DNA of 32,000 bases, from the NCBI RefSeq assembly GCF_000382205.1, contig NZ_KB907791.1, positions 441,007 through 473,006 of the forward strand, given 5' to 3'. This DNA is from Dyadobacter beijingensis DSM 21582 (lineage in GTDB: Bacteria; Bacteroidota; Bacteroidia; Cytophagales; Spirosomataceae). Below, piece by piece: positions 2,295-25,576 of this stretch. The notes beneath the pieces were generated by a model. It worked only from the letters and a program-made list of their open reading frames with translations, was not told the DNA's origin and did no database searches. The stretch's first letter is position 1. Each line of letters opens with the position of its first letter. The translations under genes and the position numbers were made by a program.

Positions 2295-3179
2295 TTAGTT
2301 GGACACTTCTTCCAGCACGGTTAAGGCGTTTGGCATAGCTTCTTCCCATTTCTTTTGGGGTGTGGTAAAGCCGATGGAGCGGTGTAACCGGCGTTCATTA
2401 TAATGCTTGATGAAACGCTGCAACGTTTCTTTTGCCTCGTAGTAACTGGCAAATTCATTACGTTCAATCACCTCACGCTCCAAAATACTGTGAAACGCTT
2501 CGATATAAGAGTTTTCTTCTGGTGTTGCTACGTGTGTAAACTCTTGTCTGACTTCCGAATTTTTCAAAAAATTACGCACTTTGTTAGCGATGAATTGGCT
2601 ACCGTTATCATTTCGCAGAACGACGCCTTGTAACTGATGAAAATGGTTGACGCGGCGCAATAAATTTATTAAGTCCAGTTGTCGAATGCTGCTCTGGAAT
2701 ATCCAATCGACGATTTTACGGGTAAATACATCTAAAATACACAGGAGATAATAATTACGTCGCTCACCATTGATCCAGATATACTTAATATCCCAGCAAA
2801 GATACTCCAGGGGCTTTGTGGCTTCAATTCGCCGAAATTGAACAAAATCCCGCTTCCCAGCCGGTCGAATCATCTTTCCCAATAGTAGGTCATTGGCTAG
2901 CATCAGGCGGTATACCTTCTTCTTGTTGATTATATATTCCTTTTTCAGTTCGTGTGTAATGTATTCATATCCAAATGCATTAAATTCAGTATCAATAAGT
3001 TGCCTAATCCGTGCGGTCACATCTTCGTTTGATACTGAAACCCCGTCTACGGTCATAGTTTCACGACTAGGTTTTACCCCTGGTGTTCCCTGTCGTGGTT
3101 TGTAGTATGTTACACTCCGCGGTACTTCTAACCACCGGCACAACTCTTTTCGGGTCGCATTAAGCTGATATCGTGCCAT
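2295..3179 (-). CDS. IS3-family transposase OrfB (DDE/rve integrase core), normally made as an OrfAB fusion
   Basis: 294 aa with rve-type motifs (WDIKYI..., LRNDNGSQF, ...PEENSYIEAFHSILEREV...). Its frame stays open upstream of the ATG, back through the A8 run in the -1 frame relative to orfA. Confidence 0.9.
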   Translation of the reverse strand: MARYQLNATRKELCRWLEVPRSVTYYKPRQGTPGVKPSRETMTVDGVSVSNEDVTARIRQLIDTEFNAFGYEYITHELKKEYIINKKKVYRLMLANDLLLGKMIRPAGKRDFVQFRRIEATKPLEYLCWDIKYIWINGERRNYYLLCILDVFTRKIVDWIFQSSIRQLDLINLLRRVNHFHQLQGVVLRNDNGSQFIANKVRNFLKNSEVRQEFTHVATPEENSYIEAFHSILEREVIERNEFASYYEAKETLQRFIKHYNERRLHRSIGFTTPQKKWEEAMPNALTVLEEVSN

Positions 3180-3184
3180 GATAG

Positions 3185-3505
3185 CTATCTTTTCCTGGGT
3201 CCGATAGGAGTTTTTTTTAGCAGCTCGCTTTTTACCTCCAATTCCAAAGCTTGCTTGGCCACAATCCGCTTAAGTCGCTCATTTTCTTCTTCAAGAGCGC
3301 GTAATTGAGGATCGACACGGACATATGAATCGCGAAGGCCATCCTTACCACTGTCTAAATACTTTTGCCTCCACTTTCTCAAAAGTGATGGTGACAGGTT
3401 GTACTTCCTACTGACATCAGCATGGCCGTCCCGAAGAGATTCCTGTACGATCGAATAGCGATCTTCGGCGCTGAATGTTCGTCTTTGTTTACTCATGATT
3501 CCCAA
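3185..3505 (-). CDS. IS3-family transposase OrfA (HTH DNA-binding / leucine-zipper part)
   Basis: 106 aa. Motifs are RRTFSAEDRYSIVQE...LSPSLLRKWRQKY (HTH_Tnp_1-like) followed by a coiled-coil region, LRALEEENERLKRIVAKQALELE. Confidence 0.9.
   Translation of the reverse strand: MGIMSKQRRTFSAEDRYSIVQESLRDGHADVSRKYNLSPSLLRKWRQKYLDSGKDGLRDSYVRVDPQLRALEEENERLKRIVAKQALELEVKSELLKKTPIGPRKR
3211..3218 (-). other. Programmed -1 ribosomal frameshift site of the IS3 element (A8 slippery run)
   Basis: The minus strand reads CTA AAA AAA ACT in the orfA frame. The orfB frame is -1 relative to orfA and stays open across this run (..AKKNSYRTQEKIAIMARYQL). A-AAA-AAA heptamers are the classical IS3-family frameshift signal. 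Confidence 0.75.
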
Positions 3506-4105: not shown

Positions 4106-5155
4106 GTGAGCTTAACTACGGTAGACCTAGCCACTGGTCGCTATCAAATTTCAAAGGGCGTGACCGCGAATGAATTGGCTAAATTGGCAGAAGATCTGAA
4201 AACTTCTGTAATCCAGCTTTCCAAGCCGATTGATACTAAAACCATTGCCTTACTGGAACAAGTCGTTTTTTCCAAACGTCGAGACATCGCCCTGAGGGTG
4301 TATGGGCACTATTCTGAGAGATGTGATCTAAGCTTTATTGAAAAGATACCATCGATTAGAGAGCTCTCGGTAGATTGTCTGATGGAGGTCACTAATATTG
4401 ATGTAGTTACGAGAATCCGGCACTTAGATGGACTGCATGTAGGCATTTTTGGACTTGATAACTTTGAGTTCCTGAATAACGTCGACCCTCACTTGAAGCG
4501 GCTCTCGCTATATCAGACTCGATCAAAAAAACCAAGGATTGAGACGATTGGTCGGTTCACTGAACTTAACGAACTATTCTTAGAAGGACAGAGCAAGGGG
4601 ATTGAGGCCATTAATGAGTTGAAAAAACTCGAAAAAATCGTATTGCGATCTATATCAACCCCGGATATTGAATACCTTAGGAATCTGGAACGCTTATGGT
4701 CCGTTGATATTAAGTTAGGAGGTATAAAGGATTTAAGTGCATTAAAATCCCTACCCAATTTGAAATACCTGGAAATTTGGCAAGTTAGAGGACTTTCAGA
4801 CCTGTCGGTTCTATCGGACTTAAAATCGTTACAAAACTTATTTCTTCAATCACTACCGCAGCTCGCCGTGTTTCCTGCAATATCTAGCTTGGGTAAACTA
4901 AGGCGTATTGACCTTGAAAATCTAAAAGGTTTGATGGACTTGAGTGAATTGAAATCTGCGCCTGCCTTAATTGAATTCAGTTACTTAATGGCACAAAACC
5001 AAAGCCCTGAAAACCTCATCCCTGTACTCGAAAATAAGAGCCTGAAAAGGGTCTCTTGTTATTTTGGTAGCGATAGGAAGAATAATGATTTTAAAAAGCT
5101 AGCCCAGTCATTTGGAAAAGATGAGTGTGAGTATCAAAAGTTCGTGTATAACTGA
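4106..5155 (+). CDS. Leucine-rich-repeat (LRR) protein
   Basis: 349 aa with a GTG start per the ORF track. It has about 22-24-residue LxxLxxLxL repeats, for example LPNLKYLEIWQVRGLSDLSVLSDLKSLQNLFLQSLPQL and LGKLRRIDLENLKGLMDLSEL. Its 3' end overlaps the convergent integrase 3' end by 22 nt. Confidence 0.6.
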   Translation: MSLTTVDLATGRYQISKGVTANELAKLAEDLKTSVIQLSKPIDTKTIALLEQVVFSKRRDIALRVYGHYSERCDLSFIEKIPSIRELSVDCLMEVTNIDVVTRIRHLDGLHVGIFGLDNFEFLNNVDPHLKRLSLYQTRSKKPRIETIGRFTELNELFLEGQSKGIEAINELKKLEKIVLRSISTPDIEYLRNLERLWSVDIKLGGIKDLSALKSLPNLKYLEIWQVRGLSDLSVLSDLKSLQNLFLQSLPQLAVFPAISSLGKLRRIDLENLKGLMDLSELKSAPALIEFSYLMAQNQSPENLIPVLENKSLKRVSCYFGSDRKNNDFKKLAQSFGKDECEYQKFVYN

Positions 5156-6315
5156 GGTTCATTCGCATAGATCTGCGTAGTACGGATGTTCGTATGTCCA
5201 AGCATTTTAGAAACACTCTCAATCGGAACTCCATTTTGCAGGGTAATCGTAGTAGCGAACGTATGCCTGGCTACGTGTGAAGTGAGAACTTTATCAATCC
5301 CGCAGATTACGGCAATCTCTTTCAGATAATCATTCATTTTTTGGTTACTCGGCACCGGCAAAACGAGCCCGCGGGATTCGCAAAGCGGATGGCCTTTGTA
5401 TCTGTCAATGATTTGAAGCGCTTCCGGCAGCAACGGAATGTGAGACTTGACATTCATTTTGGTGCGCTGGCTAAATATCCACTGTTCACCGTCAATTCCT
5501 CGTGTTATCTGGCTTTTTTCGAGCTTCTGAACATCCGAGTAGGCCAGGCCGGTGAAACAACAAAAAAGAAAGGTGTCCCGAACCTGTGCAAGCCGGTCGC
5601 TAGCAAATTCTTTCCCCGCCATCAAATCCAATTCAGTTCTAGTGAGGATCTCCTTGTCAACCTTTTTAAATTTACCCTTGAAGTTCAAATACGGGTCAAG
5701 GTTCATCCAGCCATTGCCCAGGCAGATGTTGACGATTTTGCGGAACATTTTCATGTGCTTCACCACCGCGTTGTTGCCCATTTTACGAACTGAGCGGAGA
5801 TAGAATTCGTAATCGGCGATGAAAGCGAAATCGATGCGACTAATGTCAAAATCGGTTGTGTTGAATGTCACTTTCAGAAATGCGAGTGTATGGCGTTCTA
5901 AAACCTTATAGCGATTGAATGTATCGATTGCATATTCCTGGCCAACCAGTGCCTTCATCCGATCATTATGGTCAGCAATCACTACCATAAGTAACCGCTG
6001 CTTAGGACCGACGCCCAGAAATTTGTTTTTGACCGTTTCCGCTGTTATCAATGCGCCGTCGCGAACCAGGGCGGCGTGGGCGTCGAGTAGTTACTGTTCT
6101 AAGTTGCCGAGATAAGCGTTGACGGATTTCACGGTTTCCTTCGCACCGGTAACTCTTCCCGCAACCGCATTCCATCGACTGGGTTCGCATTCGCGCCCGG
6201 TCGTAAATTCAGCTCTTTTACTTTCAACCGTAATCCGCAGATAGATCGGAACCGGACCTTTCTGATAATTCTTCGGCTTCTTCAAATAGAAAAGCAGACT
6301 GATCTTTGTTTTCAT
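5134..6315 (-). pseudogene. Tyrosine recombinase/integrase (Bacteroidota Arm-binding + SAM-like + catalytic domains) with one in-frame TAA at 6091-6093
   Basis: The ORFs 6091-6315 and 5134-6051 are in the same frame (1182 nt = 394 codons). The minus strand reads ...AAC TTA GAA CAG TAA CTA CTC GAC... (NLEQ*LLD). The C-terminal catalytic motifs are HVARHTFAT and LGHTNIRTTQIYA. Confidence 0.85.
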
Positions 6316-6511
6316 ACCCTTTTCAGGTTAAAAAGTTGAACAAAAGTAGTCTTGCAAGCCTGGTCAGCGCAAGATGTCCACCGCATGGACATCTTGTAAA
6401 TCAATTGGTTACGCGATTTCTGGTGAGTAAACTTTTCAGGCTGATTGACTCACCGAATTACTCACCAAAACTTTGAGAATATTTGAACGTTTTGGTATAG
6501 TAGGGGCAAAC

Positions 6512-7907: not shown

Positions 7908-9428
7908 ATGATTTTCAAGATACTCAATCGTTGGGGCGACTACCCTCCGTCCACTCGTAACCAAGTTATCCTTACCTGGGATAATTGGAATGATTTCCAA
8001 TTCTACACGTCCTTCGGCATTTTCTATATCGACGAGGATTCGAAAAAGCACGAACTTAGTGGTATAAAGATTGGATTTATTGGTCAGTCGGTGAAGCAAC
8101 GTGTATACAGCATAGGTCATTCGTTTGACCGCCTTGAATCACCATATTTTTCCTTGGGAACCTCCGAAGAGTACTACGAAAAATTAAATTTGCTTCCGGA
8201 TGATATCAGGGATGAAATTTTATCAGGCCTTCGCGATCTCGCAAAGGATACGGAACTGTTTTATGAGGTGATCAACGAACCGGTAGTCGCGAAATCGTTG
8301 CTGAGAGACCTAAGCATATCAACAGTTACGGGACAGTTTAAACGAATGACCGAAGGGGGGGCTAAGCTGACGGACTACCATTTTAAATTCAATTATGCGG
8401 GATTTGCAACGACTCATCCGGTCGAACTAACTTTTGACGTGTCTCCCGAGTCTCAGCCACCAACTAACATTCATGTGATTATTGGAAGAAACGGAGTTGG
8501 TAAGACATACTTGATAAATAGTATGATTGATGCTCTTGTTATCGATGGGAAGAAGCAAACCGGTGGGGGGGACTTTGACTTCGTTGGTTATAATTCTGAA
8601 AGTGGAGATTCATTTGCGAACTTAATATCCATATCCTTTAGTGCTTTTGACGAGGTAGAACCGAAGTCGAAGAGCACTAAATTTATGGGTAACATCAGTT
8701 ATTCCTATATCGGATTAAAAAATACAGAGGCAACAAACCTGCGACGTTCCTCCATCAAAGATCCATCTCTATTGGCAGATGAATTTCTAAATAGTTTAAG
8801 GGCATGTCGTTCAAGACTTTTGTCAAAAAGATGGCTCCAAGCTGTCTCCACGCTCGAGTCGGACCCGAATTTCTTTGAAGCTGGTATTCGGAGCTTGATC
8901 GACGAGGTCTCTCCTCGACGGTCCGCAGACGTTTTAAATGTTTTTCGAAGGCTCAGTTCGGGACATAAAATCGTGTTGTATTCAATCACAAGTCTCATTG
9001 AAAAACTACAAGAACGTAGCCTTGTCATAATGGACGAGCCTGAGGCGCACCTGCATCCTCCACTATTATCAGCCTTTATTCGGTCGGTTTCCGATCTTTT
9101 AATTATGACTAACGGTGTTGCGATTGTTGCGACCCATTCGCCAGTCATTCTTCAGGAGGTCCCTAGAAGTTGTGTATGGAAGTTGAGGAGAAGCGGACCG
9201 GTTATGGTTGGAGAGAGACTTGCGAGAGAATCATTCGGTGAAAACGTCGGAACATTAACAAATGAGATTTTTGGTCTTGAGGTTACTGATTCCGGTTTCT
9301 ATAAAATGTTAAATAAGATTATGAAGCTACAAAATTTTGATTATGAGTCCGTTATTCGAGAGTTCGGAGGTCAGTTAGGAATGGAGGCAAGGTCAATTTT
9401 AATGGCTGAAATTGCGAATAGAGAATAA
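7908..9428 (+). CDS. ABC/AAA_21-type ATPase (Septu PtuA-like) with a ~190-aa N-terminal extension of unknown function
   Basis: Walker A is GRNGVGKT (8484-8507). The ABC signature-like motif is LSSGHK. Walker B plus D-loop is LVIMDEPEAHLHPPLL (D376 at 9033). The H-loop is VATHSPVILQE. The stop overlaps the next start (TAATG). Confidence 0.75.
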   Translation: MIFKILNRWGDYPPSTRNQVILTWDNWNDFQFYTSFGIFYIDEDSKKHELSGIKIGFIGQSVKQRVYSIGHSFDRLESPYFSLGTSEEYYEKLNLLPDDIRDEILSGLRDLAKDTELFYEVINEPVVAKSLLRDLSISTVTGQFKRMTEGGAKLTDYHFKFNYAGFATTHPVELTFDVSPESQPPTNIHVIIGRNGVGKTYLINSMIDALVIDGKKQTGGGDFDFVGYNSESGDSFANLISISFSAFDEVEPKSKSTKFMGNISYSYIGLKNTEATNLRRSSIKDPSLLADEFLNSLRACRSRLLSKRWLQAVSTLESDPNFFEAGIRSLIDEVSPRRSADVLNVFRRLSSGHKIVLYSITSLIEKLQERSLVIMDEPEAHLHPPLLSAFIRSVSDLLIMTNGVAIVATHSPVILQEVPRSCVWKLRRSGPVMVGERLARESFGENVGTLTNEIFGLEVTDSGFYKMLNKIMKLQNFDYESVIREFGGQLGMEARSILMAEIANRE

Positions 9429-11096: not shown

Positions 11097-14000
11097 ATGA
11101 GTCCCGAAAATGATTACGCATTAAGTCGTTTAGCCGTACGCCTTGATAACATAGAAAACGGCACGCCGATCGGCAGTGGAATACTATTTAATTGTAACAC
11201 GCCATCAGGTCCAGTTTATTTAATCACAGCGGCCCATTGCTTGTACGAGGATGAGGAGACTTTCCAGCTTCCGAGGTTACGGATACAAGCCCAATTTTTT
11301 GATCCTAGGCTTGGATCGCATCAATCTGTTACGATTAATGTCAATCACGATTTGGTGTCAAAATCTCCACTTAACGACATTGCCATAATTCATCTGGAGA
11401 AGGACGTGGTAGAGTTGATCACCGGCGAGTTGCCAACGGTTCATGCCATCAGCGAGCGACACTCAATCACTTCCTTTGTTTTGAAAGGATTTCCAAGCGC
11501 CACACGTGGCCAGGAAATTGTTATGATAAAGCCGGAGTTTGTTCAAGCGAATCCAGGAAGATTGGGTTTCCAGTTGCGCCTAACAGATGATTTTACCACG
11601 GATACCAGTGCAGAGTCGAAAGTGGACGGTTTCTCGGGGAGCGGGATTTTTCTGGAAACACATGGTAGACTGTATCTTTACGGTATTTTTACCCGGTTTC
11701 GAGAGGCTCAGAAGATCATCTATTGTCAAAACATCGAGACTGCCAACGAGCTACTTGCTGTTGCCTTTTTACAGACCATCCCCTTCACCTATATTGGTGA
11801 GCACGGACTCACGCCCGAGTTTTTTGCAAGGCACAATTCAGGCGCGATAAATAATCTGGGGCCGCGATTTAGTGAGCAATTGAATTTGCGATTGCCAATT
11901 GTCGGCGATTTTCATGACGCGCGTAGAGGCAATGCATTTAAATATAGGCTTCAAGATTGCGTCGAACAATGGCTTGATTCTCACAGACATTCCGGCTCAG
12001 ACTTCAAAGGCGGAATACTTGAGACAACTGTCAGTGAATGGCATTCTATCAAAAAGTCTGTTATTACGTGGATCACAAACATTCAATGGCGAGCTGACCA
12101 GCATCTCAGCATCGCCCCGATTCAAGATATTCTTGACAGTTTCAAGCTCCATGTTGATGCGAAAAAGGAGGATTTCTACGCACTGCGACAAAGGAACAGA
12201 CAACAAGAAACGCCGCCGAGCAATGAGAAGAAGAATGCTCATACTTCTCGAAGACAGCAGTATGAAGATGAATTGACTTGGCTGCGAACCGTTGATCAGG
12301 CTATTTACGCACTCGAGCGTGCATTATCAGAAATATCCATTACGCTTGCAAATAATCCCTTTCTGGTAATTAAAGGCGAGCCGGGATGTGGGAAGTCCCA
12401 TTTGCTCGGTGATATTGCTAGTTTGGCGACTAAGGATGGCGTTGCGACTCTCTTGTTATTGGGGCAGCTCTTCACAAAGAGTCAAAGCGTTGCTCAGAAC
12501 ATTTTAAGCCAACTTGGCCTTAACTGCTCTCCGGATGAATTATTCAATTCGCTGAACAGTATAGGTAGGCAGCAAGGTGCAAGAGTTCTATTGATGATCG
12601 ATGCGCTCAATGAAGGCCCAGGTAAGGACCTGTGGAAAGATTCGTTGGCGGGTTTTATTCAGGATGTAAAGAGGTATCCTTTTGTTGGTGTGATTATGAC
12701 TGTTCGGTCCACATATTTCAACGCTATTCTTCCAACAAATTTACAAAACGATGAAACGATCACGTACAGAGATCATCAAGGTTTTAAAGGAAATGAATAT
12801 GCGGCTCTCCGACTTTTCTGTGAACACTACGGACTACAAATGCCGACGTTTCCGATTTTGACGCCTGAATTTGCCAATCCACTCTTTCTTCAACTCTTAT
12901 GTCAGGGCGTTAAGATCTCTAGAAACAGGACTTTCCCGCATGGCTTCCAGGGGATTACAAAAGTATTTAACTACTATATAGATGCAGTGTTTGAAAGACT
13001 AGTCGGGAAAAGAGATGAGTATGAGAATCGGCGTCATATTGTCCGTGATGCTATTTTTACAGTTGCGAAAGCCTGTTTTAGTGATGATAATTCACGAATA
13101 TTGTCATTTGAAGATGCAGACAGGCTTTTTGAAAAAACTTTCCCGCGATTCCAACACTTGCTGAATGATCTTATTCACGAGAACGTTTTCATCCAAACGA
13201 CTCAAAATACCTACGATTTAAATCCAGGATTTGAAGCGCTGTCGTTTTCCTATGAACGATTCGGAGACATTTTCATCGCTGAGGAATTGTTGGCTGGGTA
13301 TGTTTCAACTGCGGATGTTAGCCAAGCATTTCAGAAAGATGGCAAGCTTGGACGGTTGCTAAAAGGCTATTTGTGGCCAAACAGAGGTGTTCTTGATGCA
13401 ATGGCTATTCGTTTACCTGAAAGATACGGCTTGGAACTAATGGAAATATGCGATTGGGTCTATGCCGAGGAGGAGGATTCAGAGTACAGTGATGTCGGCG
13501 AGTGGCTATCTCGATCTTTTTGGGACAGCTTAAAATGGCGACACCCGGAAAGCATTGATAATGCGAAGATAACAACATGGTTGAATAGCGACCAATGCAT
13601 GCTGAATGAACACGAGTACACTTTGAAGTTAGTCGAATTAGCAACTGTTCAGCAGCACCCCTTCAATTCGGATCGACTGTTCAGATATTTGAATCAGTTT
13701 TCGATGGCGGAACGCGACGCTTTTTGGCAAGAACATATGCTTAGATATTCTCGATATGATGACGATCGAAATGCTCTTCCAATAAGACGACTTATGGATT
13801 GGGCATGGCAAAAGGGAATATCATCATCAGTTGACATGGAGACCGCTCGCCTTGCCGCGCAAACTCTGGCTTGGCTTCTTTCAAGCACTTATAGACAACT
13901 TCGGGACCAAGTAACTAAAGCCATGGTGAATTTGCTAGAAGAGCAGCCAGATGTCCTAATTGAAGTTATGACAGCGTTTAAGGATACAGACGATGTCTAT

Positions 14001-15431
14001 ATTTCGGAACGGCTTTACTCAGTAGCTTATGGATGTGTACTTCGGACTGCGAATGGCAGTAGCATCGCGAAAATAGCGAAATACGTATATAACCGTACGT
14101 TCATTGGTAAAAACCCGCCCATTCATGTACTGCTTCGTGATTACGCTAGGAATATTTTGGAATATGCCGACTACAAAGGACTAGCTGACTACGCCGATAT
14201 GGCACGAGTACGTCCGCCCTACAATAGTGACTTTCCAAAAAGATTACCGTCCGAATCGGAGATTAAGCAATTCGAAAATAGTTTTGAAGGGACAGGCCAA
14301 AGCTTGGAAAAAGAAAAAAACAGGATATATGGACAGATACATTTTTCAACGACCACATGGGATTTTGGGCGCTATGTGGTGAAAAGTGCCCTTAGGCATT
14401 TTGCCCCAACTAGTTTTAAATTCGAGTCGACATATAGAGATTTTAAAAAGTCACTTAAAGGAAAAAGAAAATCTTTCATATCCGTGTTAGAATCAAGTGC
14501 TCGCCTACATTCGGTAATCGAGGAAAGGCGTGCACAAGGTGTTAAATCCCTTTTTGGCAAGTCGACAGATGATTGGCTTAGAGAAGAAGAAGAGCATCTT
14601 CAGGTATGTCTTGATCGTATGAATGGACCATTTGATCAGATAGAAATGATGCAAATACGCGACGAATTTTTACCTTTTCTCAAAGCGAAATATGCGAGCC
14701 AAAGTGGCCAACGGGATGCTATTGATGACGGACCCATCAAACGCTGGATTGTCCAGCGTTCATTCCAATTGGGATATGACATCGAAAAACATTATGATTA
14801 CGACAGCCGTACCGAAAGACTCAACGAGTTTCCAGACTATTATGGAAGCAAAATTGAGCGCATTGGAAAAAAATATCAATGGATTGCATTCCATGAAATT
14901 GTTGCCCGGCTTTGCGACAATTACCATTTCATCGAAGATAGATGGAGCTCGAGTGCTAAGTATGGGTTGTACCAGGGGCCATGGCAGCTTTTAATAAGAG
15001 ATGTCGATCCGGTGTTCACAACAAAGACAAAGAGAGAGGAAAATGACAGCGACTTGGGAGAAGCTACCGATTTTTCAAAAAAGGATTGGAGGTTTGACGC
15101 AGATTACCGATACTGGAACCAGCCGGTATCGCAATGGGTAAGAAATAAGCAAGATCTACCTGCACCCGAAAAAATGATTCTTCGTAAAGATGATTATGGA
15201 CACGAGTGGGTGTACCTGCGAATGAACAAAACTTGGCAAGAACCGAAGGGAGTTGGATCGGACCGACATATTAGTCGTAAGGAGATATGGTATGGGATTA
15301 ATTCTTATCTCGTACCAAAGCGAGACAGAAAGAAGATAGTTGCGTGGCTAGAGGGGAAAAACTTCTTCGGCAGATGGATGCCTGAACCTGACGAAATGAG
15401 CTTAAATCTTTTCAATAGGGAGAATTATTGA
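11097..15431 (+). CDS. Trypsin-like serine protease fused to a STAND/NACHT-like P-loop NTPase with a long helical C-terminal region (Avs/NLR-like). The frame continues past the TGA to 15881
   Basis: Protease triad motifs are LITAAHCL (His47 at 11235-11237), NDIAIIHL (Asp94) and DGFSGSGIF (Ser180). Walker A is GEPGCGKS (12375-12398). Walker B is LLMIDALNEG (Asp502 at 12600-12602). More than 900 aa of mostly helical sequence follows. Confidence 0.8.
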   Translation: MSPENDYALSRLAVRLDNIENGTPIGSGILFNCNTPSGPVYLITAAHCLYEDEETFQLPRLRIQAQFFDPRLGSHQSVTINVNHDLVSKSPLNDIAIIHLEKDVVELITGELPTVHAISERHSITSFVLKGFPSATRGQEIVMIKPEFVQANPGRLGFQLRLTDDFTTDTSAESKVDGFSGSGIFLETHGRLYLYGIFTRFREAQKIIYCQNIETANELLAVAFLQTIPFTYIGEHGLTPEFFARHNSGAINNLGPRFSEQLNLRLPIVGDFHDARRGNAFKYRLQDCVEQWLDSHRHSGSDFKGGILETTVSEWHSIKKSVITWITNIQWRADQHLSIAPIQDILDSFKLHVDAKKEDFYALRQRNRQQETPPSNEKKNAHTSRRQQYEDELTWLRTVDQAIYALERALSEISITLANNPFLVIKGEPGCGKSHLLGDIASLATKDGVATLLLLGQLFTKSQSVAQNILSQLGLNCSPDELFNSLNSIGRQQGARVLLMIDALNEGPGKDLWKDSLAGFIQDVKRYPFVGVIMTVRSTYFNAILPTNLQNDETITYRDHQGFKGNEYAALRLFCEHYGLQMPTFPILTPEFANPLFLQLLCQGVKISRNRTFPHGFQGITKVFNYYIDAVFERLVGKRDEYENRRHIVRDAIFTVAKACFSDDNSRILSFEDADRLFEKTFPRFQHLLNDLIHENVFIQTTQNTYDLNPGFEALSFSYERFGDIFIAEELLAGYVSTADVSQAFQKDGKLGRLLKGYLWPNRGVLDAMAIRLPERYGLELMEICDWVYAEEEDSEYSDVGEWLSRSFWDSLKWRHPESIDNAKITTWLNSDQCMLNEHEYTLKLVELATVQQHPFNSDRLFRYLNQFSMAERDAFWQEHMLRYSRYDDDRNALPIRRLMDWAWQKGISSSVDMETARLAAQTLAWLLSSTYRQLRDQVTKAMVNLLEEQPDVLIEVMTAFKDTDDVYISERLYSVAYGCVLRTANGSSIAKIAKYVYNRTFIGKNPPIHVLLRDYARNILEYADYKGLADYADMARVRPPYNSDFPKRLPSESEIKQFENSFEGTGQSLEKEKNRIYGQIHFSTTTWDFGRYVVKSALRHFAPTSFKFESTYRDFKKSLKGKRKSFISVLESSARLHSVIEERRAQGVKSLFGKSTDDWLREEEEHLQVCLDRMNGPFDQIEMMQIRDEFLPFLKAKYASQSGQRDAIDDGPIKRWIVQRSFQLGYDIEKHYDYDSRTERLNEFPDYYGSKIERIGKKYQWIAFHEIVARLCDNYHFIEDRWSSSAKYGLYQGPWQLLIRDVDPVFTTKTKREENDSDLGEATDFSKKDWRFDADYRYWNQPVSQWVRNKQDLPAPEKMILRKDDYGHEWVYLRMNKTWQEPKGVGSDRHISRKEIWYGINSYLVPKRDRKKIVAWLEGKNFFGRWMPEPDEMSLNLFNRENY

Positions 15432-15533
15432 TCCCCCGCAGCGAAATTTGACAATAGTCAGCGAAATCTTTGGGAAACTATTTCCGGTACTAAATTCAAG
15501 GTAATCCTTACCACTAATCGAGCGGTAGGTGAA

Positions 15534-15881
15534 ATGAGCGAGGACAAATCTGATGCTCACTTTTATTACGAGATGCCTTCAAAGATAATCTTTGAAGGTA
15601 TGGGATTGAATTATGCATCTGAGGATGGTTGCTTTACGAATGGAGATGGTCAAGTTGTTGTGATCAATGTAGATCAGACTGGGGTCTTGGTGAGGAGGAA
15701 AGAGTTGGTACTGTTTCTCAATAATAATAACTATGATATTATATGGACCTTACTCGGAGAAAAAAATGCTCTAACAGGGTTATCGACGAACAGTGATGCA
15801 TACTTTAAAGCAATATGCGGAGTCTACCAATTTGAAGGAGATAAGATAATTGGCGATTTATCTATTTTTGAACGTAACTAA
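15534..15881 (+). CDS. Either the C-terminal ~150 codons of the protease-STAND protein, separated by an in-frame TGA, or an independent 115-aa protein
   Basis: It is in the same frame as 11097-15431. The 34 codons between the TGA (15429-15431) and this ATG contain no stop (SPAAKFDNSQRNLWETISGTKFKVILTTNRAVGE). I recognised no family. Confidence 0.4.
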   Translation: MSEDKSDAHFYYEMPSKIIFEGMGLNYASEDGCFTNGDGQVVVINVDQTGVLVRRKELVLFLNNNNYDIIWTLLGEKNALTGLSTNSDAYFKAICGVYQFEGDKIIGDLSIFERN

Positions 15882-15885
15882 AAAT

Positions 15886-16974
15886 ATGCGCATTCGATTT
15901 TATCAGGTTGACTGTGGTGACGCGGCTAGTATTTTGTATGAAGGCAGTGATGGGAAGGACAACTATGTTTTCGTAGACGCTGGCTACGAGAGGACTTATC
16001 GAGAAATTCTCGCTGACGAAATCAAGATTATCGATGCGACAGGTGCTACGATTGATCTGTGGTTGATTTCTCACATCCATGATGATCATATTGGCGGAGC
16101 TGTCTCATATGCAAAAGCGATAGAAAGGTGCGATGCCAGGGACATCGTTTCAAATTGGTGGTACAATCATCCCTATAAAGCAATAGGAGATACGAAAGCT
16201 CCCAAGTCAACTTTTAATATAAGTGAAGCCAAAAGTTTCGCGCAGAGTGAAAAACTAACCTCCTACCTCCGATCGGCTGGTCGTCTGCCGAAGTTTGATA
16301 TTGTTCAAGCAATCGATCCCAAATACCATAACGATCTGAAAATCAATATACTGTCACCAACGAAGGATGCTGTAAACAAATTGAGAGAAAAATATGAGAA
16401 TTCCAGCTTTCTCGACAGGGACTATCATGAGATGACCGCGATTAGTGAGCCGAAAGCAGCGAAAATGAATGACTACTGCCAAACGATAGAGAGCTTTGAT
16501 TTAGAGGCTTTTGCAGAGGATGTGTCAATCGAAAATGAAAGTAGTATAGCGATTTTGATAGAGCACAGTGGCATACGAATACTCTGGTTGGCCGACTCCC
16601 TTCCTAGCATAATTACAACCGCTCTTAGAAATCTTGGATACTCCGAAGGGAACCCATTGCAGGTTGACCTAGTGAAAGTCTCCCATCATGGAAGCCGTGG
16701 AAACAATAGCAGCGAACTGTATGATATGGTTCGCTGTGACAAATATATTTTCTGTGGAAGTGGAATCAATAAGCACCAATTGCCTACGAAAGAATGCATG
16801 GTGAGAATTCTTAAAAATAAATATAGGGACGTTAGAGACCGATACGAGTTTATATTTACTCACGACAATCCCAGCCTCCGCGGAATTTTTGATGTTGATG
16901 AAATTGACATTGTTAAAAACTTAAACTTTACGATGACTTTTTCTGCCTCTAAATATGTCGATTTGCATTTTTAA
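15886..16974 (+). CDS. Metallo-beta-lactamase-fold hydrolase, ComEC/Rec2-type (probable nuclease)
   Basis: HxHxDH motif SHIHDDHIGG (16072-16089). A later VKVSHHGSRGNNS is typical of ComEC-type MBL domains. I prefer the ATG at 15886 (MRIRFYQVDCGDA), 4 nt after the upstream stop, over the track start at 15850. Confidence 0.75.
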   Translation: MRIRFYQVDCGDAASILYEGSDGKDNYVFVDAGYERTYREILADEIKIIDATGATIDLWLISHIHDDHIGGAVSYAKAIERCDARDIVSNWWYNHPYKAIGDTKAPKSTFNISEAKSFAQSEKLTSYLRSAGRLPKFDIVQAIDPKYHNDLKINILSPTKDAVNKLREKYENSSFLDRDYHEMTAISEPKAAKMNDYCQTIESFDLEAFAEDVSIENESSIAILIEHSGIRILWLADSLPSIITTALRNLGYSEGNPLQVDLVKVSHHGSRGNNSSELYDMVRCDKYIFCGSGINKHQLPTKECMVRILKNKYRDVRDRYEFIFTHDNPSLRGIFDVDEIDIVKNLNFTMTFSASKYVDLHF

Positions 16975-17084: not shown

Positions 17085-18554
17085 ATGAAAGATGCGTTAT
17101 TATTTATGCAAAATTTAGAAATGAAGACATATAAAGCTGTTGAACAATCGAACGTCGTTCGCGACCTAGATGAAGAAATCTCAATTGGTAACTATGTGCT
17201 TGATTTAATTCATCCAGACAGAGCAGCTTCGATTAACGTTAAATTGGAATTTCGTACGTCGCCAATTAATCATGTATTCTTATGTGGTACGGTGGTCCCT
17301 GGCAAGGAGCCGTTTAGTTTGATGGTTTTGCACGGTAATAAGTATCAGGCATTTGTAGAAGGAGTAAAGGTTGGAAATATAGTGTTGCGTAAGTACGACG
17401 AGAAAACAGGTGCGGTTCAGGGAGTATTCCTCGGCGAGACCGTCTTCGGAGACCGGTCGGTCTATGCTGATCGGGCCAGATTTCTTATTCAAAATCTCCG
17501 CGAGATTGGAGGGCGTCAAATGGTTTATGAAGATGGCTCCTTTAATGTCGGACACTATACATTTGATGATGGCAAATTCGAAATTCAAATTAGTAGAAAT
17601 CGAGAATTCAATTTAAAAATGCAAGCTTGGCAGGATTTCGGAGGTGCGTTCTGGGGTTATTCGGGAGAAGTAAAAAAGAAAGGGAGTTCCATTTCATTTG
17701 AAGAAGTAAACAAGGTTCTTAAGTCATTTGGGTCATTTCTAACGATGATTAATGGTGCCACTATTTCTCCATTAGTTGTCGAAGGGATTGCGCGAGATGG
17801 ATCACAGCTCTTGTGGCGAGATTTTTCGGCCTATGCTAATAGTAACGCTATTTTTTCTAACACACACGGTCTCTTGCAATCAAAAACCTATTTGAATCTA
17901 AACACTACGTGGCAAAATTTCAGGAAATTGGAGACGTTTCCAAAGGACAAGAGCTTTCTTAACTCTGCTTTGAAATGGTATATCGAGGCAAATTCGAGTA
18001 CTAGTCTGGAAGCATCTATAGTTATTTCACAAACCTGCTTGGAACTAATTTACAACTGGCTTGTGGTTGAGAAAAGGCAAATGCTTGCAGGCAAAGATGC
18101 TAGTAATATTCTTGCCGCAAATAAGCTACGCCTGCTAAACAGCATCATAGATTTCAAAATTGACCTTCGAATGCTTCCCGCGCTTGCAGATGGAGGCTTC
18201 CAGAAGAGTCGGGATAAGGACATTTTCAACATCATTGTCGGTATACGCAACGCGCTAGTGCACGGTGAAGAAACGAAACGGGAAAGTATTGAGAGCCTGC
18301 TGCCACACGCGCTGCACCAAGCGCGAGAATTACTTCTGTATATGATTGAGATGGCACTTTTGTTTATATTAGGATACGAAGGACGCTATTGTAGCCGGTT
18401 CCTGGTCCCAGAGGTAAGAGCTATTGCCAAGTATCCTGTACCGTGGCATCGATTATACGATAAGATCATGTGGAATATTGAGACAGGGAAGTATGACCCG
18501 GATCTGGCCAAGGCCGAGACGGATTTGCTTTATGGAGAAGGGAGTCATCTTTAA
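17085..18554 (+). CDS. HEPN-domain protein with a large uncharacterised N-terminal domain (ApeA-like architecture)
   Basis: The C-terminal helical domain carries an Rx4H motif, GIRNALVHGEE (R388-H393, 18246-18263). It is preceded by a helix, SLEASIVISQTCLELIYNWLV. The N-terminal ~300 aa is beta-rich with no recognised motif. Confidence 0.55.
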   Translation: MKDALLFMQNLEMKTYKAVEQSNVVRDLDEEISIGNYVLDLIHPDRAASINVKLEFRTSPINHVFLCGTVVPGKEPFSLMVLHGNKYQAFVEGVKVGNIVLRKYDEKTGAVQGVFLGETVFGDRSVYADRARFLIQNLREIGGRQMVYEDGSFNVGHYTFDDGKFEIQISRNREFNLKMQAWQDFGGAFWGYSGEVKKKGSSISFEEVNKVLKSFGSFLTMINGATISPLVVEGIARDGSQLLWRDFSAYANSNAIFSNTHGLLQSKTYLNLNTTWQNFRKLETFPKDKSFLNSALKWYIEANSSTSLEASIVISQTCLELIYNWLVVEKRQMLAGKDASNILAANKLRLLNSIIDFKIDLRMLPALADGGFQKSRDKDIFNIIVGIRNALVHGEETKRESIESLLPHALHQARELLLYMIEMALLFILGYEGRYCSRFLVPEVRAIAKYPVPWHRLYDKIMWNIETGKYDPDLAKAETDLLYGEGSHL

Positions 18555-18764: not shown

Positions 18765-19712
18765 ATGAGTCATAATAAAATTACTACCGTTACCAGAACA
18801 AGTATCGCTGATGCCTTGACCGTCGGAAAATTGTGGTACAGCGGAAGATTGAAGGAAGCAGATTTTTTAAACCGGATCTACGATTTGTCGGCGATGCCTT
18901 CAACAGATTATAGACCGGAATATAATAATGCTTATAAAGACGTTTATCAACATGCCGATATGAACTTCGGAGACTGGGAACCGGATTGGGTGTTTACCGA
19001 TGTCCGTTTTAATCTGATGCATTGCGACGATGAGACATATTTAAAGTTTTTAACTGAAACTTTAAATCCGAACGTAAGGCCTGACATTAACGATACCAAC
19101 AAAGTCGTTGGGATTTATAATAAGTATTTGCAACCAGATGGGTTTCAATTTTATCAGACTGGTGAATTATCTGGAAGACCTGTTTTTTCATGGACGAGAG
19201 ATGGGATCAGCCAGACCCGGCTGGTCGCTAAGGCCGTTGAGATCAGAAAGTATATTGATACTGACTATGTGAACAAGAAGATCGAGCAGATGAATAAGGC
19301 TATCCCCAACGACACAGATGTCGCCATCGGTACCGGTAAAGAATTGTTGGAGATCATTTGTAAATCTATATTGAAGCAAAAGAATGTTGATATTGATAAA
19401 GGTTGGACACTCCAACAACTCATAAAGCACACAACAAATATCCTGGATTTCAAGCCAAAAGAAGCTGATCAGCCGGATGCTGCCGAACGATCCATAAAAC
19501 AAGTCTTAGGCGGTATAGCAACAATTGTCCAGGGGGTAACGGAGCTAAGAAACGCTTATGGTTCCGGGCATGGTAAGGATGCCGAATTTAAAGGATTAGA
19601 GAGTAAATATGCTAAATTATATGTTGGTGTTGTTGCTGAAATCGCTATTATCTATCTTGCCACAAACGGCGAGACTGTGATGGTCGAACCTATCAACCCG
19701 TCTATTTTGTAG
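18765..19712 (+). CDS. AbiJ-like abortive-infection protein (AbiJ N-terminal domain plus Abi_C/HEPN C-terminus)
   Basis: The C-terminal VQGVTELRNAYGSGHGK (R at 19548, H at 19569) matches the Abi_C 'RN..G.GHG' HEPN motif. The N-terminal ITTVTRTSIADALTV...WYSGRLKEADFLNRIYDL resembles AbiJ-NTD-type domains. Confidence 0.7.
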   Translation: MSHNKITTVTRTSIADALTVGKLWYSGRLKEADFLNRIYDLSAMPSTDYRPEYNNAYKDVYQHADMNFGDWEPDWVFTDVRFNLMHCDDETYLKFLTETLNPNVRPDINDTNKVVGIYNKYLQPDGFQFYQTGELSGRPVFSWTRDGISQTRLVAKAVEIRKYIDTDYVNKKIEQMNKAIPNDTDVAIGTGKELLEIICKSILKQKNVDIDKGWTLQQLIKHTTNILDFKPKEADQPDAAERSIKQVLGGIATIVQGVTELRNAYGSGHGKDAEFKGLESKYAKLYVGVVAEIAIIYLATNGETVMVEPINPSIL

Positions 19713-23803: not shown

Positions 23804-23961
23804 TCAACAGTAGGCCATTTTGATCCTTAATTTGATCTCTAATAGGAAATAGTGAGAAATTTTGGATCAGAATGGGCCATCCTGCTCCACTTTAAGCTAA
23901 GTCAAAAGCCATTTTAAGAACTTTTGAGCTGGAATCAGCATGCGCGGTGGTTTCCTCCACA

Positions 23962-24012
23962 GCCAGCTATCGCCGGTACGTCGCGAAATGCGACTCCCCG
24001 GCGGGAGCTGGC
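23962..24012. promoter_or_regulatory. GC-rich nested hairpin, candidate oriT recognition structure
   Basis: Three nested stems are separated by small symmetric bulges. GCCAGCT (23962-68) pairs with AGCTGGC (24006-12). CGCCGG (23971-76) pairs with CCGGCG (23998-24003). GTCGC (23980-84) pairs with GCGAC (23990-94) around the loop GAAAT. The structure lies 63 nt upstream of the MobC-like start. Confidence 0.45.
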
Positions 24013-24074
24013 CATGGGAAAACCCCTGGACCCCTGCTATTCGCCTCCGGCTCATAGCTAATCAAAAAAGACAC

Positions 24075-24734
24075 ATGGAAAATCAGAAACAAAAAGGCAG
24101 ACCGCCGAAGGAAAAAGGCACTGCCAAAAGGGAACACTTTTCAGTATGGGCGAGTGCTGATCAGAAAAGACAAATTAATGAGCTCATTGAAAAAAGCGGG
24201 CTTTCCGCCAGTCAATATTTCTTGACCTTGGCGCTTGATGTGCCTTTTAAAAGGCCACAAAAAAGGGCGCTACCCAAGGCAACTGCCGAGATGGTCAGGG
24301 TGCTCCAACAGCTTTCGGGCGTTTTGTCGCTGGCAGCCCTGAAAACCAAGGGACACCAGATTCTTACAGACCAGTGGCAGCAGAGTAGCCAACGGGTCAG
24401 GCTTCTTGCGGATCTGATCACCCTTTGGGTGTTTGAAAGCTTTGAGATCCGTAGCATACAAAAAGCTTTCGACGAGCTGCTTAATTGCTCAAATGAGCTC
24501 AGCTTTTATCTTTCTCAAATGCTGCCTGAAACCGAAGGCAAGCATCAGCTGCTTCTTAGATGCAGTGCGACCAGCCGTATGACCAGTGATTTGAAGCAAA
24601 AATATGAGGACTACTATTCGCAGCCACTTGAAGAGCTAGGACCGCTTTGGAAATCAGGCGAAACCGACGCCCTTTCCGTTCACGCTGAGATTGAAAAAGC
24701 TGTAATTGCAACCCTGAAAAAGATGAGGTTATGA
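24075..24734 (+). CDS. MobC/MobA-like relaxosome accessory protein (ribbon-helix-helix type)
   Basis: From the internal ATG at 24075 the protein reads MENQKQKGRPPKEKGTAKREHFSVWASADQKRQINELIEKSGLSASQYFLTLAL. This is the typical N-terminus of Bacteroidota MobA/MobC-family proteins. The stop overlaps the relaxase start (ATGA). Confidence 0.7.
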   Translation: MENQKQKGRPPKEKGTAKREHFSVWASADQKRQINELIEKSGLSASQYFLTLALDVPFKRPQKRALPKATAEMVRVLQQLSGVLSLAALKTKGHQILTDQWQQSSQRVRLLADLITLWVFESFEIRSIQKAFDELLNCSNELSFYLSQMLPETEGKHQLLLRCSATSRMTSDLKQKYEDYYSQPLEELGPLWKSGETDALSVHAEIEKAVIATLKKMRL

Positions 24735-25576
24735 TTGGGAAGGCGACACTCGGCAGCTACGCCAAAGGGTTGATTGAATATTGCTATTACGACAAGCATG
24801 TCTCCGCGAAGATGCGGCAAAGCCTGGATGAACAGGAGGTCCGAGGAGAATTGGTTTATATCCAGAACCTGGGGATCAAAATGCAGGCAGACGGGAAGTT
24901 AGACCTGGACTATTTGATCAAACAGTTTAACCGTAATCACATGCAAAATACGAACCTGAAAAAGTTCATGTGGCACCAGTCATTTAGTTTCGCGCCGGGC
25001 GAAAAGCCTGGCAACGAAACGATCGCCGAGATATCCACGGAATTTGCAAAGGAGTTTGGATTTGAACAGAACCAGATGCTGGTTTTCAAGCATGAAGATA
25101 CGTCGAATGTGCACTTTCATATCGTCGCAAATCGAATTAATTTCAATGGCCAAAACACTTCAAAGCACTTTCACAACTACGCCAGAACCGGAGAATTCTG
25201 CCGCAGAATGGAACAACGTCTTGAATTAATCCAGGCACCGGAAATGAGGATCAATAAGCGGCTCGGGCTTGAAAATGTGCTGACCGACATGCAGCATCTG
25301 AAACTCAAATCATCCGTTGACCAGCTTTTAAATACGGCAGCATCGATCAATGAACTCAAAGCGAAATTGTTAACCCAGGGGTACAAAACTTATGTTGGAA
25401 GAGGGATCGCATTCTATCATATGCGGAAAAATATAAAAATTAAGGGCTCCGACTTAGGGCGGAGCTATTCGCTCGCCGCCATTGAAAAGCGGCTAGCTCG
25501 AAATATCGGAATCGGGATTAAGGAGGAGTTGCAGCAACAGCAAAAAAGGCAGAAAAAGCAGGGCCTGGGCATTTAA
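24731..25576 (+). CDS. Relaxase/mobilization nuclease (MOB family, MobB-like)
   Basis: It has the histidine-triad region EDTSNVHFHIVANRINFNG (HxH...N motif of Relaxase/Mobilisation nuclease domains). It is coupled to the upstream accessory gene. Confidence 0.8.
   Translation: MIGKATLGSYAKGLIEYCYYDKHVSAKMRQSLDEQEVRGELVYIQNLGIKMQADGKLDLDYLIKQFNRNHMQNTNLKKFMWHQSFSFAPGEKPGNETIAEISTEFAKEFGFEQNQMLVFKHEDTSNVHFHIVANRINFNGQNTSKHFHNYARTGEFCRRMEQRLELIQAPEMRINKRLGLENVLTDMQHLKLKSSVDQLLNTAASINELKAKLLTQGYKTYVGRGIAFYHMRKNIKIKGSDLGRSYSLAAIEKRLARNIGIGIKEELQQQQKRQKKQGLGI

Follow-up and report, generated by a model that had tools for sequence, protein, structure and literature searches.

In the Avs2-trypsin-MBL system of Vibrio cholerae, Avs2 tetramerizes when bound to terminase and its protease cuts the zymogen of a metallo-beta-lactamase (MBL)-fold partner at two sites, and the infected cell is then killed by the freed DNase (Guo et al., bioRxiv 10.64898/2026.08.25.746987; Evans/Gao laboratory, PMC12642450). 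The C-terminal domain (CTD) of VcAvs2 spans residues 1171-1461, with G1401, S1402 and K1405 among the terminase contacts (bioRxiv 10.64898/2026.08.25.746987). In the complex of EcAvs2 with the PhiV-1 terminase, the beta-rich C-terminal sensor and the tetratricopeptide repeat (TPR) domain form the terminase pocket, and E1362, E1364, E1444 and E1462 contact terminase or a bridging ATP, their combined mutation weakening defense (Evans et al., Nat Commun 2026, PMC13601566). We analyzed a window of 32,000 nucleotides from Dyadobacter beijingensis DSM 21582 (assembly GCF_000382205.1, contig NZ_KB907791.1, positions 441,007 to 473,006 of the forward strand; coordinates below are those of the window) that carries a homologous two-gene system. 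Its Avs2 gene (11097-15881) very probably holds a recent TGG-to-TGA nonsense allele of this known type of defense gene, one that most likely abolishes terminase sensing.

The locus has the same two-gene layout as VcAvs2 and VcMBL. The protease, STAND NTPase, TPR region and C-terminal sensor follow one another in the same order, an MBL gene comes directly after, and the catalytic triad, the Walker A and B motifs and the HxHxDH motif of the MBL protein are present as in V. cholerae. By homology the same mechanism, known from the V. cholerae and E. coli homologs, would be expected. Unlike VcAvs2, however, the sensor gene in the window is interrupted by a TGA 149 codons before its end and hence is probably non-functional, and unlike the V. 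cholerae copy its homologs all belong to the Bacteroidota, the nearest homologous protein being 63% identical. EcAvs2 (structure 9O4E) aligns with the window protein over the STAND, TPR and C-terminal sensor regions and shares its WTLLGEK motif, but it carries a different, uncharacterized N-terminal effector, has no MBL partner and is encoded by an intact gene.

The first 1,444 codons of the gene form an open reading frame (ORF) on the plus strand, 11097-15431, that is closed by the premature TGA at 15429-15431. Beyond it, 149 sense codons continue in the same frame to a TAA at 15879-15881, so that the cut-off tail with its original stop occupies 15432-15881. The next ATG, at 15534, is in frame with position 11097 ((15534-11097)/3 = 1479), and the 34 codons at 15432-15533 that separate it from the TGA contain no stop. 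These ORF coordinates, the shared frame, the stop-free codons and the sequence at the junction had been reported in the original prediction and proved correct when rechecked. The same prediction had called a shared frame only moderately unlikely by chance, which agrees with the statistics of the 7.38 Mb genome that holds the window: among its stop-to-stop frames of at least 400 codons, 286 of 2,515 (11.4%) are followed by at least 149 open in-frame codons, probably for the most part neighboring genes that happen to lie in the same frame. Because so many long frames match it, frame sharing alone is weak evidence, and it is homology, as read from the alignments below, rather than frame statistics that makes the feature real.

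Homology runs across the stop. The upstream ORF matches positions 1-1427 of the 1,576 positions of the PADLOC Avs2 profile PDLC02163 (2073.6 bits) and the 149-residue tail matches positions 1429-1575 (162.2 bits, E = 3.2e-48), leaving exactly one profile position, that of the TGA, between the two. A search of 5.8 billion protein clusters returned more than 2,000 homologs of the read-through protein, with more than 2,000 matching the C-terminal region; the best are Bacteroidota proteins of 1,570-1,594 residues, many of them named "AVAST type 2 anti-phage system protein Avs2" by NCBI. We aligned 112 homologs of at least 1,400 residues with MAFFT and found Trp under the TGA in all 112, within the motif NRE[NK][YF]-W-SP; this column is also invariant in alignment A1. 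The Ser and Pro that follow are kept in 108 and 103 of the 112, the tail is 149 residues long here against a family median of 148.5, and in every aligned full-length homolog it is the C-terminus of the protein. The continuous frame with Trp at the position of the stop, which the original prediction had named as the sign of pseudogenization, is thus what the alignment returned.

At the DNA level, the window reads AAT TAT TGA TCC where its two nearest relatives read AAT TAT TGG TCT (locus L005, which encodes protein P0002) and AAT TAC TGG TCT (locus L006, which encodes P0004). The difference from the Trp codon of these relatives is a single G-to-A transition at 15431. By homology, the stretch 11097-15881 is one gene encoding an antiviral STAND protein of the Avs2 type whose N-terminus is a trypsin-like protease. 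As it stands, it is a broken member of the Avs2 (AVAST type 2) family, homologous throughout but with a product that would be truncated under the standard code; the uninterrupted TPR and C-terminal sensor regions that Avs2 carries in one polypeptide are here divided by the stop.

We then placed the break on the structure of the sensor. Residues 238-1587 of the read-through protein match EcAvs2 in 9O4E (E = 3.5e-173) in an alignment that is continuous across the stop, and the TGA falls on W1320 of chain 9o4e_A. The tail (9O4E residues 1321-1477) corresponds to the second half of the beta-rich C-terminal sensor domain, while the upstream ORF holds the first half. The tail includes the conserved IIWTLLGEK motif, whose Glu (codon at 15759-15761) is equivalent to E1444 of EcAvs2. 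All four EcAvs2 glutamates named above (E1362, E1364, E1444 and E1462) are C-terminal to W1320 and so belong to the portion missing here; judging by protein lengths, the counterpart of the tail in VcAvs2 would include the contacts G1401, S1402 and K1405 as well. In a confident AlphaFold2 model of residues 1151-1594 (predicted local distance difference test, pLDDT, 82.6), beta strands flank the stop on both sides. The only significant PDB fold match that Foldseek found for this C-terminal model was the SeAvs3-terminase complex 8DGC (E = 5.9e-5), SeAvs3 having the same C-terminal sensor according to the literature; the Foldseek library runs to April 2026 and apparently does not contain 9O4E, and the sequence search is the more informative of the two. 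A G-to-A nonsense mutation truncating a defense protein, the first of the three explanations proposed, without ranking, in the original prediction, therefore gains support from the invariant Trp, the TGG codons of both relatives and the colinearity of the tail with the EcAvs2 sensor.

Apart from the TGA, the operon looks intact. The trypsin-like domain (Pfam Trypsin) keeps its catalytic residues in conserved columns (His47, 11235-11237; Asp94, 11376-11378; Ser180, 11634-11636). The STAND NTPase (Pfam NACHT and AAA_22) keeps the Walker A Lys433 (12393-12395) and the Walker B Asp502 (12600-12602), within a GCGKS motif whose two Gly, Lys and Ser are invariant in the 112 homologs and an IDALNE motif whose Asp, Ala, Asn and Glu are equally invariant. 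A helical TPR-like sensor region lies between the NTPase and the C-terminal sensor in 11097-15431. Of the 169 columns upstream of the stop with conservation of 95% or more, the protein departs from one, residue 1391 (15267-15269) of the C-terminal sensor, and matches the other 168. This residue, 54 positions ahead of the TGA, is His here and Tyr in 108 of 112 homologs.

The MBL-fold effector gene (15886-16974, plus strand, 362 residues; Pfam Lactamase_B; PADLOC LmuA PDLC03854 with 231 bits, RTasMBL and Avs1a) also looks intact, with the metal-binding motif HIHDDH (HxHxDH) at residues 63-68. It starts 4 nt after the TAA, and the same spacing of 4-5 nt after the full-length Avs2 frame is seen in the window, L005 and L006; the MBL protein is 63% and 56% identical to those of L005 and L006, respectively. 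Avs2 and the MBL-fold zymogen nuclease gene form a two-gene operon. The MBL protein also contains two conserved Ile-Ser dipeptides, around residues 112-113 (ISEAKS) and 186-187 (ISEPK), in regions that align poorly among the three MBL homologs. Similar Ile-[S/G/A] sites, after Ile133 and Ile232, are where the protease is reported to cut VcMBL.

In an intact system, binding of terminase would drive the STAND domains into a tetramer and so assemble four protease domains, which would cut the MBL protein twice and release a DNase, leading to cell death. In the window, translation would normally stop 149 residues early, yielding a product that lacks the second half of the sensor, including the equivalents of the EcAvs2 residues that contact terminase and the bridging ATP. 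Such a protein would no longer recognize terminase, and we infer loss of terminase sensing and a null or near-null allele. Since an intact MBL gene sits beside it in a living strain, the truncated Avs2 is presumably not strongly auto-active. This would make the second half of the C-terminal sensor a segment dispensable for viability, a point worth noting since removal of the entire TPR domain and CTD auto-activates the protease in vitro.

The mutation is apparently recent, because the rest of the operon is undamaged and the orphaned tail has not decayed. All 20 tail columns with conservation of 95% or more are unchanged, no insertion, deletion or second stop has appeared, and the identity of the tail to the nearest homolog (68.5%) compares with 63.9% upstream of the stop. 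From the conserved codons, we obtained a rough upper bound of about 0.06-0.07 substitutions per site for neutral divergence since the mutation; by 0.15-0.20 substitutions per site, a further stop should have arisen with 95% probability.

Several points weigh against a recent loss of terminase sensing. The loss of function is deduced from homologous structures, and an Avs2 construct lacking both the TPR domain and the CTD is auto-active in vitro, which makes the behavior of a protein truncated within the CTD uncertain; in a much less likely reading, such a truncation would alter trigger specificity or autoinhibition rather than simply kill the sensor. Among 61 other genomes of the genus we found no close orthologous DNA, only three weak short matches, so that the ancestral codon is deduced from distant relatives and the timing of the mutation is only bounded. 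The A at 15431 is that of the assembled sequence. Finally, ongoing selection through some readthrough of the stop could equally leave the tail as perfectly preserved as it is.

We therefore weighed a recent nonsense allele against other accounts of the TGA, beginning with readthrough, which the original prediction had also listed. As programmed recoding, it has no support as far as the sequence can tell: an in-frame stop at this Trp codon is conserved in none of the 112 aligned homologs, and neither a decoding tRNA nor an RNA element was found. Genome-wide stop-codon statistics rule out an alternative genetic code, as TGA closes 715 of the 2,515 long frames (28%) and is followed by a median open stretch of 16 codons, against 17 for TAA and 15.5 for TAG, with the same length distribution. 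No tRNA-Sec, suppressor tRNA or tRNA with a UCA anticodon was found in the genome, ruling out decoding by selenocysteine or a suppressor. The single tRNA-Trp (CCA) has a normal anticodon stem, which excludes a tRNA-Trp with a 4-bp anticodon stem of the kind discussed in PMC13092985. No selenocysteine insertion sequence or other stimulatory RNA element was found either: there was no Rfam match at E values up to 1 in 15000-16200, and 15420-15500 shows no stable fold after the stop, being no stabler than shuffled sequence (z = 0.65). An unprogrammed leak past the stop is a separate account. Among bacterial stop codons, UGA leaks most, usually through near-cognate reading by tRNA-Trp. If tRNA-Trp(CCA) read the UGA as Trp in a small fraction of cases, a little full-length Avs2 would be made with exactly the ancestral residue restored and, since activation is catalytic (the protease, then the DNase), this small dose might keep some defense at a lower cost of autoimmunity. 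Besides the intact tail, a second Avs2 homolog with a single TGA at a conserved Trp speaks for such leakiness. This is locus L015 (1462-4077, minus strand), from another class of the same phylum, but its TGA (FQNF-stop-WNPVMYSEWD) interrupts a different, nearly invariant Trp, and it keeps the Trp that is broken in the window. In addition, the TGA at 15429-15431 is followed by T, the base that most often comes after genuine TGA stops of this genome, the tRNA and RNA searches above offer no help, and recent mutation explains the preservation of the tail equally well. We consider a leaky stop unlikely. Its stronger form, in which the UGA is tolerated through low-level reading by tRNA-Trp and turns an abortive-infection sensor into a low-dose, low-autoimmunity allele, we hold to be slightly more doubtful again; if true, L015 would hint at recurring Trp-to-UGA "dimmer" alleles in the Avs2 genes of the phylum.

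An error of sequencing or assembly, or a mutation that arose in laboratory culture, would mean that Avs2 is intact, with TGG at this codon, in the natural population. The change is a single base without other damage to the operon and is known from the assembly as said above, and another single-base in-frame stop, the TAA at 6091-6093 in an integrase gene, lies in the same island. However, the same split products occur in NCBI, in Logan and in an older MetaClust gene call, from two contig versions (490,906 and 490,902 bases), substitution errors are rare in consensus assemblies, and this genome is 99.99% complete in 14 contigs; even a mutation born in culture, moreover, would make the sequenced strain a true carrier of the nonsense allele. 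We find this account improbable. By far the least credible is that there are two genes, a shortened Avs2 and a separate protein of 115 (or 102) residues started at the ATG at 15534, acting alone or complementing Avs2 in trans. Gene callers do annotate products of both lengths here, and an in-frame ATG does stand 34 codons past the stop. That Met, the first residue of MSEDKSD, nevertheless falls on E1363 of EcAvs2, at the center of a terminase-contacting loop of a single folded domain, and the 34 codons between TGA and ATG are themselves homologous to Avs2 (from profile position 1429 onward, with the Ser and Pro conserved as given above). The sole small protein in the 5.8 billion clusters that matches the tail is the gene call from this very window, which rules out a stand-alone family, and no homolog ends at the equivalent of NRENY. 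The genuine separate gene of 115 residues that the original prediction had entertained is accordingly refuted by the criterion stated there, and alignment identifies the ORF at 15534-15881 as an artefact of the cut-off Avs2 tail. A recent nonsense allele thus stays by far the most probable explanation of the TGA.

Public gene calls for the locus disagree, giving an upstream piece of 1,444 residues or of 945 residues (starting at the internal Met500) and a tail piece of 115 or 102. The 1,444- and 115-residue split products are on record in the NCBI and Logan collections, from the two contig versions, while a lookup of contigs encoding the 945-residue product gave none on record. For annotation, the 1,444/945- and 115/102-residue calls are to be taken as the two fragments of a single broken Avs2 gene; the "small protein" is no basis for a gene family, and the strain should not be counted as carrying a working Avs2-trypsin/MBL system. 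This is an ordinary gene inactivation, in a type of system that has already been characterized experimentally. It adds one more case of a costly abortive-infection sensor switched off by a single point mutation, with its latent DNase partner left intact.

Avs2 is sporadic in this lineage, with one distant copy among 24 relatives from the genus. Its C-terminus was found in seven of 401 sampled genomes of the phylum, this one included, and two of these seven are interrupted by a TGA. In L015, as in the window, one TGG-to-TGA change at a conserved Trp interrupts an Avs2 gene that is otherwise intact; the different Trp position and the unrelated genome make the two independent events. As L015 has its own TGA elsewhere in the gene, nonsense alleles recur in the Avs2 family at varied sites.

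With a G+C content of 40-47% against 52% for the genome, the whole window is a low-GC mobilizable defense island. It contains an IS3-type transposase (2295-3505), the frame of a tyrosine integrase (5134-6330, minus strand), a Septu-like ATPase (7908-9428), an ApeA-like HEPN protein (17085-18554), an AbiJ protein (18765-19712) and a NikA-like protein with a MobA-type relaxase (23940-25576). The single in-frame TAA of the integrase (GNLEQ-stop-LLDAH), the second one-base nonsense interruption of the island, splits about 78 N-terminal residues from a catalytic part of 305 residues.

The sequence around the mutated base offers a further observation. The presumed ancestral TGG TCC (within 15426-15437) would form a GGWCC site (GGTCC/GGACC), in which the mutated base would be the internal cytosine of the minus strand, speculatively a hotspot for deamination of 5-methylcytosine. 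The integrase nonsense site has no GGWCC motif, and the idea of a methylated-cytosine hotspot stays speculative. Genome-wide, GGWCC is only mildly depleted (observed/expected 0.77-0.78), and GGATCC is strongly avoided (0.315), which might suggest a BamHI-type restriction system somewhere in the lineage.

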